This document shows, one piece after another, positions 762 through 64,000 of a stretch of DNA of 64,000 nt (positions are counted from its first letter, which is position 1; every line of letters starts with the position of its first letter). The stretch is taken from the sequence record MT446407.1. One strand, given 5' to 3'. A program made the position numbers and the translations under genes. The notes below the pieces were generated by a model. That model had not been told where the DNA came from. It worked only from the letters and a program-made list of their open reading frames with translations, and made no database searches. The DNA is from Escherichia virus TH34.

Positions 762-962
762 ATGAACATTTACACCTTCTCAAGCAAAGACACGCAAATC
801 ACTTGCACTAGCATTAACGTTACTAACATGATTATGAGAATAGTCGGTAGCACGTTACAGCAAGCGAAAGAAATGATAGCTGATGCCGACAATGGCAAAT
901 CTATCGCGGTGTTATCGCTGGTAAGTACGGATAAAGATTTAACCTTTAAACGTATGAACTAA
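762..962 (+). CDS. hypothetical small protein (67 aa)
   Basis: ATG 762 with GAGGA 7 nt upstream; track ORF 723 is the TTG-extended version; no similarity recognised. Confidence 0.25.
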   Translation: MNIYTFSSKDTQITCTSINVTNMIMRIVGSTLQQAKEMIADADNGKSIAVLSLVSTDKDLTFKRMN

Positions 963-1023
963 GGTAGGTTAGCGGCCTCAATGGTCGCTAGTTTATCAAG
1001 ATGCATTAATCGAAAAATAGTTG

Positions 1024-1051
1024 TTGACACGTCGAATCACTATGATAAGAT
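1024..1051 (+). promoter_or_regulatory. sigma70-type promoter candidate
   Basis: -35 TTGACA 1024-1029, 16-bp spacer, extended -10 TGaTAAGAT 1043-1051. Confidence 0.3.
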
Positions 1052-1255
1052 GTGATCTCAGCAGTACAGAACACTTCCAGATAGATGATTAGCATCATGT
1101 AAAAAGGCTTAAACTGGAAGGAGTGGGAACACTCAAGGCACGACGCCGAGGAAGACGGCGACATATTTAACGCTCTTTAACAAATTATCATCTTGCCCTT
1201 TCGCATAGATTCAAGCGAGATAAGGGAATAGAATAAAAGAAGATGATAAAAAGAG

Positions 1256-1283
1256 TTGACAAGGTGAAACACTCTGTTAGAAT
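1256..1283 (+). promoter_or_regulatory. strong sigma70-type promoter candidate
   Basis: -35 TTGACA 1256-1261, 16-bp spacer, extended -10 TGtTAGAAT 1275-1283, A-rich tract upstream. Confidence 0.5.
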
Positions 1284-1553
1284 GTTCACTAAGCAAGGCA
1301 ACTTGCTAAACAGTTCCCTAAGTGACGTAGCGCGGGAAAGGTGGCACATAGTGCAGCGCGTAGGTCGGGTATAGCCGCCCCGTTAGTGCATAAGTAGGCT
1401 TAAAAATGAAATGTTTGCGGAGTCATGAAAACCGCACCGCTCTTTAAAAATATGAATCAGAAAGTTAAGCGCAACCGCTTACAATCTTGTTAATCCAATG
1501 CGTGATTAACTAGTCATTCGAAAGAATAGACGAGAAAAAGATTTAAAAAGTGG

Positions 1554-1582
1554 TTGACACGCTAAACGGGATGATTCATAAT
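1554..1582 (+). promoter_or_regulatory. strong sigma70-type promoter candidate
   Basis: -35 TTGACA 1554-1559, 17-bp spacer, -10 CATAAT 1577-1582, A-rich tract upstream. Confidence 0.5.
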
Positions 1583-2493
1583 GAGCACTCACTAGGCAAC
1601 TAGTGAAACGCGAAACCACGGCGAACGGTGGCGGGAGGTGAGAAAGCACCTCGATAGATTTACCGCTCTTTAACAATTTAAACTTCTTCCTATATCGGTT
1701 GAACATGATGAGCAATAATAACCATTGCAAGTCATGCCAGATAAAACGATGTAAGGCGCTCTAGAGTATCAGAGAAAACGGCCTTGCAATCCCTTACTGG
1801 AAACGATGCCACTGATAAACGAAGTTATCGAGTACATGCAATGCTTAAGCTAATCACCTACGGTTAAAGGGTAGCGGCGGCGGGGCTAGTAAAGTGCTAC
1901 GGTAATAGACGTTAATCAGGGTAATCAATCCCGACTAATTTAGCTCAATAGCGAGCGACGGAATGAAGGTTAAAGAGTAGCAAATTGCTATTTAATAATA
2001 AGGTTTAAGTGTGAGTGTTTACTGAGCAAGTTGTTTGATGCACATCAATATGATGTGAGTACATAACAATGCAATGTAGTAAACCGTGAGAGAGATAATC
2101 AAACGCCAATTTATCAGGCGGTTAATGACTCTTTGCCATATACTTTCCCGTAGTAGGTGATAAGTCGGCTTAGAGAGTTAATATAAAAGGGTATCGCGGA
2201 GCGAACGTAAAGTAAACAGTAATGCTATCGGCTAGAAGGTTAGCTAATTAGAGATAGACACACTGCCTTATTATGATGATTAATCATCGCTGGCAAATCG
2301 GCTTCGTTTATAGCGATTAATAGAATCCACCGGATGAAACATCATGGCAAGTTAGGCGGCAAGGTTAACTCCTGATAAGTCCGCCTGATTTACCACTGAT
2401 TACTAATAGTTAGTGATTAGTGTTAAGTCATTGTGACTTGAATAGCTCATAGAGAGCGGCGCATAGAGCGTTTCAATTAAAAGGTAAATTATC

Positions 2494-3396
2494 ATGGCTA
2501 AATCTTTCAATCTGGTTAATGAATCCGGTTTTAACGCACTGGCTAACAACATTCGCAGCAATAACGCAGCAATTAAGCAAGATGTTTCTAACTTCCTGTT
2601 AGGTCACTTACAGCACTTCCGTGCTAACGGTAAGAAGTTAGACGTGTTACAGGCGGCGGTAGACTTCCTGTTAACTGAACGTTACCGTGATTTAGATGTG
2701 ATTGCAGTTGCAATTTCTTTCCTAACTCCTGTTAAGTACAACAGCGACGCGGCGAACGGTAAAAAGAAATGGATTAATCTGGAAGGTGAAGCGAAAGCGA
2801 AAGAAGACGCTAAACCTGAACAAGTTAAGGCCAAAATGGAACAAAACCGTGCCCGCTGGTCTAACTCCTTTGAACGCTTTGCGAAAGGCGAAGACGTGCA
2901 GGTTGATAACCCAGCATTTTATAAAGGTTGCAACGACAACGTTCCGGTAGCAAATCAGATTAACCAGAAGGTTAACGAAAACTTTAATCAGGACATTTAC
3001 GCTTTAACTGATCGTTTGGCTGCAATCCGTATTGAAGCGGCACTACTGGCCGATGAACGCAACGGAGCATCTTCTGATAACACTATCGCATTGAGTGAAG
3101 AAGTAGGCAAAGTTAAGAAAACTTTCGATTCACTCCTTAAGAAAGTAACCGCATCAACTGTATCTATCAGCGATGACTACTTGATTAACGCATCTTCAAA
3201 AGAGCTTGAATCTCTGGACTCATACGCTGATGAAATGGAAAAGGCGATCAACGAAATGACCGAAAAATTGTCTAACCTTCGCGGTCGTATCTCAAATGCT
3301 TCAACTGTCAAAGCGAACGAGAAAGCGGCGGCAGACGAGGAAGAAGTATTGCGTAAAGCTGCCGAGATCATGGCAGCACGCCAACAAGCTGCATAA
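2494..3396 (+). CDS. hypothetical early protein (300 aa)
   Basis: First long ORF after the promoter leader; ATG 2494 with AAAGG upstream; no motif recognised. Confidence 0.6.
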   Translation: MAKSFNLVNESGFNALANNIRSNNAAIKQDVSNFLLGHLQHFRANGKKLDVLQAAVDFLLTERYRDLDVIAVAISFLTPVKYNSDAANGKKKWINLEGEAKAKEDAKPEQVKAKMEQNRARWSNSFERFAKGEDVQVDNPAFYKGCNDNVPVANQINQKVNENFNQDIYALTDRLAAIRIEAALLADERNGASSDNTIALSEEVGKVKKTFDSLLKKVTASTVSISDDYLINASSKELESLDSYADEMEKAINEMTEKLSNLRGRISNASTVKANEKAAADEEEVLRKAAEIMAARQQAA

Positions 3397-4670: not shown

Positions 4671-4728
4671 GCCTCTTCTCTGTACCAGTAGTCAACTACT
4701 ATGACGCTCTTCTTGAGCGTCTTTGTGT
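4671..4728 (+). repeat. conserved post-stop element, copy 1 (GCCTCTTCTCT...CTACTATGACGC + hairpin)
   Basis: Near-identical 11-12-nt blocks shared with 11773-11828; both copies start right after a stop codon and end in a terminator hairpin. Confidence 0.4.
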
Positions 4729-4751
4729 CTGCCGCCTTTGTGCGGCTTTTT
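4703..4751 (+). terminator. tandem rho-independent terminators
   Basis: Hairpin GACGCTC/GAGCGTC (4703-4721) + TTTGTGT; hairpin GCCGC/GCGGC (4731-4746) + TTTTT. Confidence 0.5.
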
Positions 4752-4911
4752 GCGTAGCTAGTGATGCCTAAAGGGCACTCCCTTTGTGAATCATTGGCAT
4801 GGTTCAATCCCTATTGGATGGTCATTTGACCGGGCCTTTAACGAGGCCGCTTTTTTAAGAGTCTTTACGAGGATTCTTAAATGAGTGAGGTCATGTTCAC
4901 TCTTTCAGGTC

Positions 4912-4938
4912 GCCCCGTCTTCGGATGGGGCTTTTTTA
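4912..4938 (+). terminator. rho-independent terminator
   Basis: Stem GCCCC (4912-4916) / GGGGC (4927-4931), then T6. Confidence 0.55.
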
Positions 4939-6691: not shown

Positions 6692-6916
6692 ATGAAGATT
6701 GATATCGACAATACACCAGCGGTTGTAACTCTCGGTGATCTAAATCCGGGTGAAGTCTTCCAGTTTAATTACAACGAAACTCAATATTACATGCGTACTG
6801 CATGTTACGGTGAAAACAAAAGTTATTTTGTTAACCTTTATACAGGTAAACGTGAATCTGAGTGTAAATCAACTGTAGTCAGACCTTTGCCTAACGCACG
6901 ATTAACCAATAAGTAA
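6692..6916 (+). CDS. small protein, GD(V/I)F paralog family
   Basis: Motif LGDLNPGEVFQF. Confidence 0.5.
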   Translation: MKIDIDNTPAVVTLGDLNPGEVFQFNYNETQYYMRTACYGENKSYFVNLYTGKRESECKSTVVRPLPNARLTNK

Positions 6917-6923
6917 CATCGAC

Positions 6924-7040
6924 TTATAGCCCTTGTGCTTATCAGAGGGCTATGTGAGGATGTTCCTCAATTAACTATAATCTCAATGCCATATGGCTCA
7001 CCGCTAGGGCGAGACTTGTCTCAAACATCCGGTGATAGAC
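6924..7040 (+). repeat. conserved intergenic element, copy A (possible structured RNA or operator)
   Basis: Shares with 12771-12900 an identical hairpin ATAGCCCT/AGGGCTAT (12-nt loop) plus two further stems that differ in sequence but keep pairing (GAGGA/TCCTC vs GAGC/GCTC; GAGAC/GTCTC vs GAGGA/TCCTC). Confidence 0.4.
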
Positions 7041-7146
7041 TAAAACCTGTTTAATTTTCGAATGGCATTCCGATATGTAGGGGTATGTATCGGTTTGGGA
7101 TAGAGAACAATCTAGGGGTAGAGAGTTCTCGACAGTTTGTACAAGC

Positions 7147-7180
7147 GGAAGCCTTAACGTGTAGGGCTTCCCTTTATATT
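7147..7180 (+). terminator. rho-independent terminator candidate
   Basis: Stem GGAAGCC (7147-7153) / GGCTTCC (7165-7171), then CTTTATATT. Confidence 0.4.
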
Positions 7181-7219
7181 AACTGGCAACCCTGCCTCCA
7201 CTAACAAAGAGAGAACGTT

Positions 7220-7360
7220 ATGAAGAAGTCAACCAAGCGTATGAACCGTCCTGAACGTATGGATGCAGTAGCAAATGGCGCTCTGAAGATTGAGTCTGCC
7301 ATGCTTCGTCTGACAACTAACATCCGTAAACGTCAAGGTGATTGGTTCTATGGCGGCTGA
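7220..7360 (+). CDS. hypothetical small protein (46 aa)
   Basis: ATG 7220 to TGA 7358-7360; below the track length cut-off; weak RBS. Confidence 0.3.
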   Translation: MKKSTKRMNRPERMDAVANGALKIESAMLRLTTNIRKRQGDWFYGG

Positions 7361-9448: not shown

Positions 9449-9524
9449 GCACCCTTAGCTCAATGGATAGAGCAGCGACCTTCTAAGTCGTTGGTTACAG
9501 GTTCGAGTCCTGTAGGGTGCACCA
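9449..9524 (+). tRNA. tRNA-Arg: tRNA-Arg (anticodon UCU)
   Basis: Cloverleaf by eye: acceptor GCACCCT/AGGGTGC, D-arm GCTC-AATGGATA-GAGC, anticodon loop CUUCUAA, T-arm CAGG-TTCGAGT-CCTG, encoded CCA. Confidence 0.8.
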
Positions 9525-11659: not shown

Positions 11660-11772
11660 GAAAACGTGCCTACTCTGAAGAAGAGATGGTTAGCCTGAAA
11701 GGCTTTGGTCAGCGACAGCCTGATGGCTCAGTTATCTGGTACATTAACGGACAGAAAAAGGCAAGTAAATAA
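11656..11772 (+). CDS. hypothetical small protein (38 aa)
   Basis: GTG 11656 overlapping upstream TGA, AGGAG 7 nt upstream; ends directly at repeat copy 2. Confidence 0.3.
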   Translation: MRKRAYSEEEMVSLKGFGQRQPDGSVIWYINGQKKASK

Positions 11773-11828
11773 GCCCTCTTCTCTCCTCCCTTTAGCTACT
11801 ATGACGCCTCTCTTTTCGGCGCTGTTTT
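11773..11828 (+). repeat. conserved post-stop element, copy 2 (GCCCTCTTCTCT...CTACTATGACGC + weak terminator)
   Basis: Same blocks as 4671-4728; GC stem 11805-11808/11818-11821 then CTGTTTT. Confidence 0.4.
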
Positions 11829-12282: not shown

Positions 12283-12516
12283 ATGTCTAAAGTTAGCGCA
12301 ATTGATGCCATCCGTCAGCCGTTCCAGTTTGAATCCAAGTCAACTCAGACCCAAAGTGAACCGCGTCAGATTCGTCTGGGTGGTACAGAGAAGTCTGTGT
12401 TTGATATTGCGAAAAACAAAAGCGTGACCATCGTCGAAGGCGGTGAGCTGGTTAATGTTTCCCACCGTATCCGCACTGGCAAAACTGCCAAAGATCGTGC
12501 TAAGAAAGGTCTGTAA
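12283..12516 (+). CDS. hypothetical protein (77 aa)
   Basis: ATG-initiated ORF in compact array. Confidence 0.45.
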   Translation: MSKVSAIDAIRQPFQFESKSTQTQSEPRQIRLGGTEKSVFDIAKNKSVTIVEGGELVNVSHRIRTGKTAKDRAKKGL

Positions 12517-12767
12517 TGCAAATTGCTAATAAAACCCCTCCTGAATCAATTACCCAAGTAAAGGATATGTCACCGGGAGATGTATTTCGTGCAACGGAAT
12601 ATCCGGGGGAGTTCTTTATTCGAATCCCCTCAGCTTCTGTTGGTGGCATTGCTAAACCTGTAACAGCAGTTCAGCTAAGTACAGGACATCTCTTCCGTTT
12701 AGAGATTGACATGGTTGTAATCCCTGTTCCAACAGCAATCCTTCGCTTTGACGGAGCCACAGAGTAA
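12516..12767 (+). CDS. small protein, GD(V/I)F paralog family
   Basis: Motif MSPGDVFRATEYPGEFF. Confidence 0.5.
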   Translation: MQIANKTPPESITQVKDMSPGDVFRATEYPGEFFIRIPSASVGGIAKPVTAVQLSTGHLFRLEIDMVVIPVPTAILRFDGATE

Positions 12768-12770
12768 CAT

Positions 12771-12900
12771 TTATAGCCCTTGTGAGTATCAGAGGGCTAT
12801 GTGAGCTATTCTGGCTCAACTAACCTAAACTTAATTTAATCTTACCCGTATGGGGCCGATGCTAGGGAGAGGAATAGTCCTCGAACATCCGTCGGATAGA
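12771..12900 (+). repeat. conserved intergenic element, copy B
   Basis: See copy A (6924-7040); also follows the stop of a GD(V/I)F family gene. Confidence 0.4.
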
Positions 12901-12963
12901 ATATTTTAAGAGCAGGTTATCCACAGATATTGGGTGATATCTATTTAATTGGCCTTAAAGCTT

Positions 12964-12988
12964 GGCTCTCTTAGGAGAGTCCTTTTTT
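12964..12988 (+). terminator. rho-independent terminator
   Basis: Stem GGCTCTC / GAGAGTCC then T6. Confidence 0.5.
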
Positions 12989-13008: not shown

Positions 13009-13176
13009 ATGGATAATAAGTTGAAAGTTAAGTTCTTATTGGCAGCAATCTTTATTTGCTTAGCCACCGTGGGGTTTGTCAGAACCTATTCTTTTGCATC
13101 TTGTGAGTTAAGCAAGAACAACAGAGGGGCTTACAACTGGCTGACCAATCAATGTGATAAACAGGAGAAGTTATGA
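13009..13176 (+). CDS. small secreted/membrane protein (55 aa)
   Basis: ATG 13009 with AGAAGAGG upstream; N-terminal hydrophobic segment; ATGA-coupled to next gene. Confidence 0.3.
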   Translation: MDNKLKVKFLLAAIFICLATVGFVRTYSFASCELSKNNRGAYNWLTNQCDKQEKL

Positions 13177-62814: not shown

Positions 62815-64000
62815 TTACTTAGATGGCATTTCAATACGAACAGAGATGAAAGTATCTTTCGGTATGTCAATAGGGTCCCCATCAGAATATCCTTCAATCT
62901 CATTACGAGCAAAGACGGGAGAAGTAGGATGTGTTCTGTGGTAAGTTTTTACCAGAATAGAACCATCTTCTTTCACTTCGTAATCAAGCCATACTTTCGC
63001 TTGTTTGTTAATATCACACGGTATCTCAAAACCACCATTAACCCCACCCCACCCTGCATCTGAATTGAGACCTAGGCATCCTGAAACTAAATACACTCCA
63101 GCTGAAATTCTTTTAACACTAACTCCATCTGATTGTTCATTTGTTTCAAAACTTCCATCATGAAACACTTTTACTATTGGTGACGCTGCTTTAATAAAAC
63201 CATTGACGTCAACAGTTGTATTTACGGTATCGTATACCGTCCTCGAAGTTTTCCATCCCTGCCCCTCAGCACCACCAAAAACTTTTATCTTGCCAGCACT
63301 CTCAAATGGGATACTTATCATACTGTACGTATCACCTGCCTTAAAGAAAAGGTTTGAGGAATAATTCCATATGTCCCAAGGAGCTGGAATTTGTTGGTTA
63401 TTTCTAAAGACACTAAGACCGTAGTTGCCAAGTGATGCAAGAAGGGCGTCTTGGGACGTTGTATCAAAAACTAAAGCACCACCAGGTCTCCCAATACCAA
63501 AATCACCTACCTTAAGAACGTTATCACTATTTGTTCCAGTGTTCATTGTGGCTGAGTTGCCTAATCCAAGATTAGTTCTTGCTCCAGCTGCATTAGTTGC
63601 ACCTGTACCACCACTAGCAACAGGGACGTTATTTAGTGTAGAGATGTTCCCTAATCCAAGATTAGTTCTTGCTCCAGCTGCATTAGTTGCACCTGTACCA
63701 CCACTAGCAACAGGGACGTTATTTAGTGTAGAGATGTTCCCTAATCCAAGATTAGTTCTTGCTCCAGCTGCATTAGTTGCACCTGTACCACCCTGAGAAA
63801 CAGAGAGAGCAGTCGTAAGTCCTGTAATAGAGGTTATGTCTGAGTTTGCACCAGAAGAAGCAGCTCCTAGAGTAGTTCTAGAAATAGTAACATTACCTGT
63901 AGCTTCATCAGGAGCTTGATTGTTAACAGTAACCACATAAGGTTTCTGAGATTGAACAGACCCGTCATATTGAGAATCTTTGTCAGCGTCTGGAGCACGA
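62815..64000 (-). CDS. tail fiber protein with GGTGATNAAGARTNLGLG repeats (5' end beyond window)
   Basis: Frame stays open upstream of the track GTG start (63936) to the window edge; three 30-aa phage-fiber-type repeats. Confidence 0.55.
   Translation of the reverse strand, partial: RAPDADKDSQYDGSVQSQKPYVVTVNNQAPDEATGNVTISRTTLGAASSGANSDITSITGLTTALSVSQGGTGATNAAGARTNLGLGNISTLNNVPVASGGTGATNAAGARTNLGLGNISTLNNVPVASGGTGATNAAGARTNLGLGNSATMNTGTNSDNVLKVGDFGIGRPGGALVFDTTSQDALLASLGNYGLSVFRNNQQIPAPWDIWNYSSNLFFKAGDTYSMISIPFESAGKIKVFGGAEGQGWKTSRTVYDTVNTTVDVNGFIKAASPIVKVFHDGSFETNEQSDGVSVKRISAGVYLVSGCLGLNSDAGWGGVNGGFEIPCDINKQAKVWLDYEVKEDGSILVKTYHRTHPTSPVFARNEIEGYSDGDPIDIPKDTFISVRIEMPSK
63561..63792 (-). repeat. 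perfect 90-bp tandem repeat (2.6 copies) inside tail fiber gene
   Basis: 63561-63650 and 63651-63740 are identical; third copy identical for ~52 nt then diverges. Confidence 0.7.

Follow-up and report, generated by a model that had tools for sequence, protein, structure and literature searches.

A covariation-supported RNA domain present twice in the early region of Escherichia virus TH34 and related phages, one copy being followed by a segment complementary to the nrdD leader of Escherichia coli

The early region of Escherichia virus TH34 hosts two copies, A and B, of an intergenic element, which are paralogues of a previously undescribed structured RNA domain. The element qualifies, on the alignments described below, as a covariation-supported structured domain of early transcripts matching no Rfam family, and is plausibly part of a phage-encoded regulatory RNA of a new family, with an unusual link to a host gene. 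The analysis covers a stretch of 64,000 nucleotides (nt) of the phage (record MT446407.1), hereafter the window, which has the features of the early arm of a phiEco32-like C3 podophage, and has ECBP2, TH42, TH43 and the Suseptimavirus SU7 group (Gordonclarkvirinae) as closest relatives. Early genes are on the + strand, 3' of three strong, near-consensus sigma70 promoters arranged in tandem at 1024, 1256 and 1554, and the small early genes that follow span ~20 kb. In SU10 and phiEco32 the spacer that separates genes 121 and 120 contains three such promoters, which drive early genes as far as gene 69 (PMC4281155). Copies A and B are thus internal to a long transcript made by the host RNA polymerase.

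The original prediction had placed the two copies at 6924-7040 and 12771-12900, and this is where they are. A repeat search retrieved 6924-6958 and 12771-12805 as a 35-nt repeat of 94% identity, corresponding to the hairpin P1 (ATAGCCCTT/GAGGGCTAT), which had been reported as identical in the two copies, and is. Also the blocks TCAAyTAAC, GCTAGGG and AACATCCG...GATAGA are all present in both copies. A covariance model built from relatives gives exactly two hits in the window, both on the + strand, corresponding to copy B (126.7 bits, E 6e-26) and copy A (95.9 bits, E 3e-19), and the next hits do not exceed 8 bits. The match between the two elements is far beyond chance. The flanking coding sequences are less similar than the element, as claimed, both within the window and between phages. 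The genes ending at the copies, 6692-6916 (A) and 12516-12767 (B), encode products which are 27% identical, have PHROG families in common, and are distant paralogues. A small gene ends, with its stop codon, where each copy starts, but the link to a GD(V/I)F gene family, which had been read into this arrangement, is incidental, because the gene upstream of copy A encodes a different protein in Bas92, 4E8, Paul and SU7. The parts of the two domains are the following.

6914-7047, + strand: copy A domain, covariance-model hit, starting at the TAA stop (6914-6916) of open reading frame (ORF) 6692-6916
6926-6953, + strand: hairpin A-P1, AUAGCCCUU / GAGGGCUAU, 9 bp plus a U·G pair
6956-6968, + strand: hairpin A-P2, GAGGA-UGU-UCCUC, with a pair that is G·U in Kuravirus copies
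6969-6987, + strand: A-J2/3, A/U-rich single strand with UUAAC
6988-6997, + strand: A-P3, GCC-AUAU-GGC, 3 bp and an RUAU tetraloop; GGC/GCC in Kuravirus
6998-7035, + strand: A-P4, outer stem (P4a) UCACCG/CGGUGA, inner hairpin (P4b) GAGA-CUUG-UCUC
7004-7010 and 7023-7029, + strand: internal loop of A-P4, CUAGGG-C / A-AACAUC, closed by P4a
12761-12907, + strand: copy B domain, covariance-model hit, starting at the TAA stop (12765-12767) of ORF 12516-12767
12773-12800, + strand: hairpin B-P1; Kuravirus B copies have a hairpin with a UUCG or CUCC loop instead, on the same base
12803-12817, + strand: hairpin B-P2, GAGCUA-UUC-UGGCUC; GAGUUA/UGACUC or GAGUCA/UGACUC in relatives
12845-12854, + strand: B-P3, CCC-GUAU-GGG
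12856-12895, + strand: B-P4, outer stem (P4a) CCGAUG/CGUCGG, inner hairpin (P4b) GAGGA-AUAG-UCCUC
12862-12868 and 12883-12889, + strand: internal loop of B-P4, CUAGGG-A / G-AACAUC, closed by P4a

The element is ~135-145 nt long, and folds into four hairpins comprising five helical segments, P1, P2, P3, P4a and P4b. The stop codon of the upstream ORF sits in a conserved AGUAAC at the start of each copy, and P1, a hairpin of 9-12 bp, begins 9-12 nt past it. A 2-nt junction (J1/2) leads to P2, a hairpin of 5-10 bp having a triloop in A and B, and this in turn to J2/3, an A/U-rich single-stranded linker of 10-27 nt that separates stable helices. P3 consists of three G-C pairs and an RUAU tetraloop. 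In P4 a 6-bp outer stem (P4a) and an inner hairpin of 3-5 bp with a variable loop (P4b) border an invariant internal loop, 5'-CUAGGG-N / N-AACAUC-3', symmetric in length (7x7). P1, P2 and P4b had been seen in the original prediction, the latter two as stems in which both arms differ between the copies (GAGGA/TCCTC vs GAGC..GCTC in P2, GAGAC/GTCTC vs GAGGA/TCCTC in P4b), and these exchanges are real; the covarying P3 and P4a had been missed.

Support for the fold comes from an alignment of 18 diverse sequences registered on the structure, in which P3 and P4a were positioned by fixed offsets from loop motifs only, and hence not fitted to the structure. Standard pairs fill 99.8% of the cells, compared to 37-47% once the partners are shifted by 1-3 columns; both sides change in 20 of the 36 pairs, and none of 500 shuffles reached the observed values. 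The same pairing support holds across all 44 distinct sequences. RNAalifold, run on a plain MAFFT alignment, independently recovered P1, P3, P4a and P4b, with 11 of 23 pairs compensatory. G·U pairs are frequent on the + strand, and would be A·C if read on the other strand; the fold is therefore that of the sense transcript. The 12-nt loop of P1 is swapped, in Kuravirus B copies, for C(UUCG)G or similar tetraloops, a replacement which is an RNA-level signature. Selection on an RNA structure, one of two explanations initially proposed, is supported by the covarying helices and by the many G·U pairs, while the other, a protein-binding DNA palindrome, fits neither the strand asymmetry nor the tetraloop hairpins of relatives. 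The two nucleotides flanking P4b covary as well, as A..G (27), C..A (15) or A..A (2), the first two combinations being each found in several lineages, and plausibly form a non-Watson-Crick pair within a structured internal loop.

Alignments of the element contain insertions and deletions of 1-2 nt between relatives, pointing to non-coding sequence. Small ORFs within and after copy A (6935-7054 and 7085-7204) were ruled out as genes on this ground. In two records coding sequences annotated as 'hypothetical protein' lie on top of the RNA element (PQ850610.1, 58917-59018, Bas92_0083; NC_070992.1, 64354-64449, Paul gp095), and are probably spurious because of frame-breaking indels in relatives. 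At gathering thresholds Rfam 15 detects only a tRNA-Arg in the window. At E<10 no match overlaps copy A on its strand, and the same is true for contigs with A-type, B-type and two 7-11-like copies; overlapping matches in L067, a phage-like contig described below, are at chance level (E 1.6-3.5, far under the gathering scores). Other identities were tried and rejected. ARAGORN and Rfam give nothing at the elements that could denote a degenerate tRNA or a known non-coding RNA. A sigma70 or phage gp36-type promoter (TAATGTATA; PMC4331800) inside the element was discarded, since the TATAAT found in the J2/3 linker of A lacks both conservation and a fitting -35 sequence. Pseudoknots pairing CUAGGG to CCUA in J2/3, AACAUCC to GGAUGUU in A-P2, or J2/3 to the tail are confined to a single subtype or lack covariation. 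K-turn, loop E and tetraloop-receptor motifs do not fit cleanly the internal loop.

Related phages show both conservation and covariation of the element. By blastn, the two copies are found in ~100 coliphage records, among which phiEco32, where A is located between phi32_113 and phi32_112, B between phi32_91 and phi32_90, and neither is annotated as a feature. A scan for the P4 core motif added Salmonella phage 7-11 (Grimontviridae), two 7-11-like metagenome contigs, and L067, an unrelated phage-like contig binned with a Flavobacterium metagenome-assembled genome. In L067 the sequences of P1, P2 and P4a are wholly different; architecture, P3 tetraloop and internal loop are unchanged. Phage 7-11 carries one copy, of the B type, in the 45 kb searched. 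The domain was not found, at blastn sensitivity, in 5,426 complete E. coli genomes. Matches of a 15-mer scan of IMG/VR were mostly due to chance, and located in coding sequence. About half of the matches of core-motif scans of viral, metagenome and genome collections were chance hits, scoring <25 bits with the covariance model. A literature search found no paper on the element, which may be mentioned in the primary papers on phiEco32 transcription (Pavlova 2012, Savalia 2008), and no transcriptome of phiEco32-like phages.

The element is real, but the ~120 nt initially assigned to it make up just the 5' portion of a longer non-coding unit, conserved over ~245-300 nt. Between Suseptimavirus-type and Kuravirus-type phages conservation extends over the full intergenic block, 304 nt (A) or 246 nt (B) at 80-88% identity, and the genes ahead of it are unrelated or without nucleotide hit. 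Aligned to phiEco32, the two blocks have identities of 81.5% over 233 nt and 87% over 216 nt, the adjoining upstream genes give no nucleotide hit, and a 405-aa protein encoded near the blocks is only ~41% identical. The gene upstream of copy A varies between phages, and homology begins exactly at the stop codon; megablast matches begin at position 6910 of the window. The genes downstream are constant, and encode a 46-aa basic protein after A, and homologues of phi32_90/89/88 after B. The parts of the units located 3' of the domains, and the gene next to copy A, are the following.

7070-7093 and 7103-7130, + strand: A tail, two hairpins, both loops carrying UAGGGGUA, with stems covarying between phage groups
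7147-7180, + strand: A tail, terminator-like hairpin SL7, GGAAGCC..GGCUUCC followed by CUUUAUAUU; -16.6 kcal/mol
7220-7360, + strand: gene for the 46-aa basic protein, homologue of phi32_112, following copy A in every Gordonclarkvirinae record examined
12901-12934, + strand: B tail, 34-nt segment antisense to positions -43 to -10 of the 5' untranslated region (5'UTR) of E. coli nrdD
12964-12988, + strand: intrinsic terminator T_B after copy B, 7-bp stem and U6, ~20 nt before the ribosome-binding site of gene 13009-13176

A and B have the domain in common, and their tails are unrelated. Domain and terminator-like hairpin are separated by 60-110 nt of other conserved sequence, in which a check for riboswitch- or attenuator-like organization revealed no conserved alternative pairing. 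Conservation of T_B, through compensatory changes, reaches to phage 7-11, and in SU7 it is annotated as a terminator. The stem of SL7 is also maintained by covariation, and its loop hosts a 60-nt insertion in some relatives. An intrinsic terminator with a U-tract is found at the 3' end of unit B; at the end of unit A the U-tract is weak in the window, and missing in Kuravirus. No promoter-like site was found in or beside the elements in the window. The octamer TAGGGGTA occurs only twice in the window, at 7078-7085 and 7113-7120 (+ strand), in the loops of the adjacent covarying hairpins of the A tail, and resembles the CUAGGG of the P4 internal loop; hairpins with similar G-rich loops follow the copy of L067. 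The 46-aa protein belongs to PHROG 13305, and has an arginine/lysine-rich N-terminus (MKKSTKRMNRPER). Its homologue in phage 7-11, gp135, is encoded beside gp136 ('anti-termination protein Q-like'), ahead of a non-coding gap of ~700 nt.

The putative link to the host lies in the B tail. Compared to E. coli genomes, unit B yields one significant match, 12901-12934 (ATATTTTAAGAGCAGGTTATCCACAGATATTGGG), which agrees at 32 of 34 positions with the nrdD leader, read as reverse complement, in 5423 of the 5426 genomes. The match is directly upstream of nrdD, encoding the anaerobic ribonucleotide reductase, on the strand opposite to the gene. The phage transcript is antisense to the interval from -43 to -10, and stops 1 nt short of the GGAG Shine-Dalgarno sequence. 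In the predicted RNA duplex 33 of the 34 positions pair, 32 as Watson-Crick pairs and one as G·U, the remaining position being U·U. A published NrdR-box probe places the nrdD promoter ~150 nt upstream of the ATG (PMC12176259), and maps there next to a TATAAT; the targeted segment is therefore in the transcribed 5'UTR. The 34 nt are invariant in 19 distinct tails of E. coli/Shigella phages, except for one A>G substitution in phage Paul, which still allows pairing as G·U; directly after the segment, tails differ in length as well as in sequence. The nrdD leaders of three other enterics have only the core CTGTGGATAACCTGTTCT in common with it. Phages of E. coli match the E. coli-specific flanks of this core, which are absent from the three other leaders; in 7-11-like phages the core persists between flanks that differ. 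For the A tail, no match could be detected in E. coli. RNAduplex, run on long sequences, gave over-extended and uninformative interactions.

The 34-nt segment includes, at 12917-12925, the only perfect DnaA-box 9-mer (TTATCCACA) of the window, which is kept in 7-11-like phages. DnaA boxes with one mismatch are barely enriched in the window (29 vs 17.6 +/- 4.2 expected). Two boxes (TGTGGATAA), ~70-80 nt apart, are found in the nrdD 5'UTR of E. coli (L072, 1217-1225 and 1296-1304) and of the three other enterics (L074-L076), an arrangement which hints at an apparently undescribed DnaA control of nrdDG. On the antisense strand of the treC-nrdD spacer of E. coli (L072, 1225-1260, + strand) a short hairpin and a run of T (GGAAAGGCGTTTTCCGGTTTTTT) come after the stretch in common with the phage, and E. 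coli itself may encode, given this terminator-like layout, an antisense RNA spanning the nrdD leader.

Fold, strand, phylogenetic spread, anatomy of the units and complementarity to nrdD can be brought together by supposing that stable regulatory RNAs, one per unit, are released from the early transcript, each with the domain serving as a scaffold and the tail recognizing the target. We assign to this reading a probability of about 35%. Each unit consists of the P1-P4 domain as the 5' body, followed by tail and terminator-type hairpin, and is located in the 3'UTR that follows a group of small early genes. The downstream hairpin, by terminating transcription in part, would set the 3' end of the RNA, and an endonuclease the 5' end, cutting either ahead of the domain or within J2/3, the A/U-rich linker, a route of release resembling that of small RNAs derived from 3'UTRs. 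The P3-P4 core, with its RUAU tetraloop and CUAGGG-N / N-AACAUC loop, would act as a folded scaffold which protects the RNA and/or binds a protein. The tail would be devoted to target recognition, and the B tail would form the 34-bp duplex with the leader of the host nrdD mRNA, altering, in one direction or the other, its translation or stability. The model accounts for the association of a shared domain with unrelated tails, the linkage to a terminator in phage 7-11, the conserved non-coding character of the units, and the host-specific antisense.

Several points weigh against this reading. The element contains no promoter, and upstream of it there is no conserved one. A good terminator follows only B, as SL7 lacks a U-tract in the A units of Kuravirus. 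The idea of exchangeable seeds rests on one case, because the A tail does not match E. coli. A scaffold role alone does not explain the invariance of the 7x7 internal loop, and the DnaA box in the nrdD-like segment could denote an action on DNA. With the whole block conserved, an invariant stretch of 34 nt is in itself weak evidence, and repression of the host nrdD would be of no obvious benefit to the phage.

CpxQ and SroC are enterobacterial small RNAs derived from 3'UTRs, and DicF is a small RNA encoded by a prophage. Unit B resembles terminator-ended RNAs of this type because it lies in the 3'UTR of a gene cluster, ends with a hairpin and U6, and carries a conserved complementarity next to a Shine-Dalgarno sequence. 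It differs in that 34 nt of complementarity, compared to a seed of 7-12 nt, are closer to a cis-antisense RNA, a covarying domain of ~140 nt lies ahead, and the carrier is a virulent phage. A broader version of the proposal sees in the units modular regulatory RNAs of virulent coliphages, made of a P1-P4 scaffold and exchangeable tails, one of which, antisense to nrdD, would directly reprogram the anaerobic supply of deoxynucleotides by RNA-RNA pairing, while the core would be a new protein-binding or catalytic motif. This is a tentative construction, on balance doubtful.

The elements may alternatively work in cis, as antitermination or attenuation signals similar to HK022 put or lambda nut sites. 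According to this view, the nascent domain binds RNA polymerase or recruits a factor, allowing transcription through the following and later terminators. Two related copies reside in a region transcribed by the host enzyme, each just past a stop codon and 60-110 nt ahead of a terminator-like hairpin, a position to which that of nutR is comparable. T_B is so close to the next ribosome-binding site (~20 nt) that no room is left for a promoter, and the downstream early genes hence need read-through. The linkage of element and terminator is kept in phage 7-11, and directly after copy A comes the gene for the 46-aa protein, whose N-terminus is rich in arginine and lysine. Like putL and putR of HK022, one of which follows a short early gene, the elements are two related structured RNAs per genome, in early transcripts made by the host RNA polymerase, upstream of terminators, and the position of putR is comparable (PMC9378689). 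Compared by description, however, put RNAs are ~70 nt long, and fold into two stems in a V shape (PMC9378689), whereas the element forms four hairpins over ~140 nt, and its conserved core is not the same. In addition, it lies kilobases from the promoters. Put RNAs act by binding the zinc-binding domain of the RNA polymerase beta' subunit, and suppress termination with no need of protein factors. Nor are signals of the lambda nut type present: the elements lack both boxA (CGCUCUUUAACAA-like) and a boxB with a conserved loop, since the loop of P1 varies freely. All five boxA-like sites of the window are at 510-1676, near the early promoters, and may already ensure Nus-type antitermination. Several terminator-like hairpins (3416, 4703-4931) lie before copy A, and SL7 is unconvincing as a terminator in Kuravirus. 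Antitermination is a rather unlikely function of the elements.

A third possibility is that the elements punctuate processing and stability of the early transcript, in analogy with the RNase III sites of T7. P1 and P2 would guard the 3' end of the upstream RNA, P3 and P4 the 5' end of the downstream one, upon cleavage in J2/3. The layout is T7-like, three tandem strong sigma70 promoters driving ~20 kb of small genes (PMC4281155), and the repeated structured elements are placed exactly at gene boundaries. The strong P1 hairpin stands 9-12 nt past the stop codon, and has UUCG-type tetraloops in relatives; the 10-27 nt of J2/3 are an A/U-rich single strand between stable helices. As in the early regions of T7 and T3, related structured elements with compensatory stems are found at junctions of a polycistron served by three tandem host-type promoters. 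The T7-type sites differ by their coaxial duplex of ~20 bp, spanning about two helical turns, possibly with interruptions. In the element the longest helix is 9-12 bp, and P4 is made of 6 and 3-5 bp around the 7x7 loop, so that the motif is a loop closed by short stems. Helices of no more than 12 bp are too short for a canonical RNase III site. Furthermore, there are just two sites among >50 gene junctions, a generic protection requires neither an invariant internal loop nor the A..G / C..A covariation beside P4b, and the nrdD-antisense segment is left unexplained. A role in processing and stability seems rather unlikely.

The remaining alternatives are much weaker. The element might be a new small self-cleaving ribozyme that severs the early transcript, having the internal loop and the P3 loop as active site, and P1, P2 and P4b as interchangeable scaffolding helices; invariant junction and loop nucleotides next to freely covarying helices, wholly replaced in L067, are typical of small ribozymes, the element is intergenic in a phage genome and matches no known class, but no pseudoknot or tertiary contact is supported by covariation, a protein-binding site would account equally well for the conservation pattern, and catalysis is very improbable. 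It is just as hard to believe in a DNA-level feature, either a linker for the recombination of early gene modules or a protein-binding site, with the DnaA box of the B tail as roadblock or titration site. Homology between phages does start exactly at the stop codon, upstream genes being different, and the perfect box is unique in the window, is kept in 7-11-like phages, and has two counterparts in the nrdD leader of four enteric genomes. However, compensatory changes and strand-specific G·U pairs are unexpected for a DNA site, recombination at a conserved block is a consequence and not the cause of conservation, and the DnaA box covers 9 of the 34 matching nt, leaving the match to the E. coli-specific flanks unexplained.

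T4-type phages reportedly carry cassettes made of an early promoter and a stem-loop (PeSL), described by Arbiol et al. in 2010. The element is similar to these in being a conserved intergenic hairpin sequence bordering small early ORFs at mosaic junctions, and differs since it has no promoter, occurs in two copies and not dozens, and has a complex covarying fold. By the features compared, it belongs neither to Rfam families nor to the put, nut, RNase III-site and PeSL classes. Though phiEco32 is a model for the control of host transcription by a phage, no RNA element has been annotated so far in its early region. The domain adds a strongly covariation-supported RNA family to this well-studied phage group, to 7-11 and to an unrelated phage-like contig, and allows the correction of small 'hypothetical protein' calls in some records. 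To our knowledge, functionally characterised trans-acting RNAs of virulent phages are rare. That a lytic phage may target the host nrdD mRNA by antisense pairing is a testable hypothesis about a gene which matters in the anaerobic gut. A new RNA-protein or catalytic motif may reside in the invariant internal loop, which shows non-Watson-Crick covariation.

Other features of the window were noticed. The region 962-2493 (+ strand), which includes the three tandem early promoters, spans ~1.5 kb without + strand ORFs of at least 50 aa, looks structured, and forms a very long untranslated leader ahead of the first large early gene (2494-3396). Sequences of the boxA-like pattern [C/T/A]GCTCTTTAA[C/A]AA occur five times on the + strand (510-522, 695-707, 1171-1183, 1438-1450 and 1664-1676), against 0.12 expected by chance. 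The last three are each located ~90-160 nt 3' of one of the strong promoters, and preceded by a hairpin. The combination resembles rrn or lambda nut leaders, and suggests that early transcripts undergo Nus-factor antitermination. A tRNA-Arg(TCT) gene resides between copies A and B (9449-9524, + strand), and an HNH endonuclease gene is inserted beside it in Bas92 and Paul. A short block at 11668-11821 (+ strand), unusually well conserved at 85% identity to phiEco32 over 154 nt, comprises the phi32_94 region with the spacer that follows, and could represent one more conserved non-coding element. Three tandem repeats of 90 nt (63556-63825; 100%, 99% and 76% identity), close to the end of the window, are presumably inside a structural, fibre-like gene of the minus strand.

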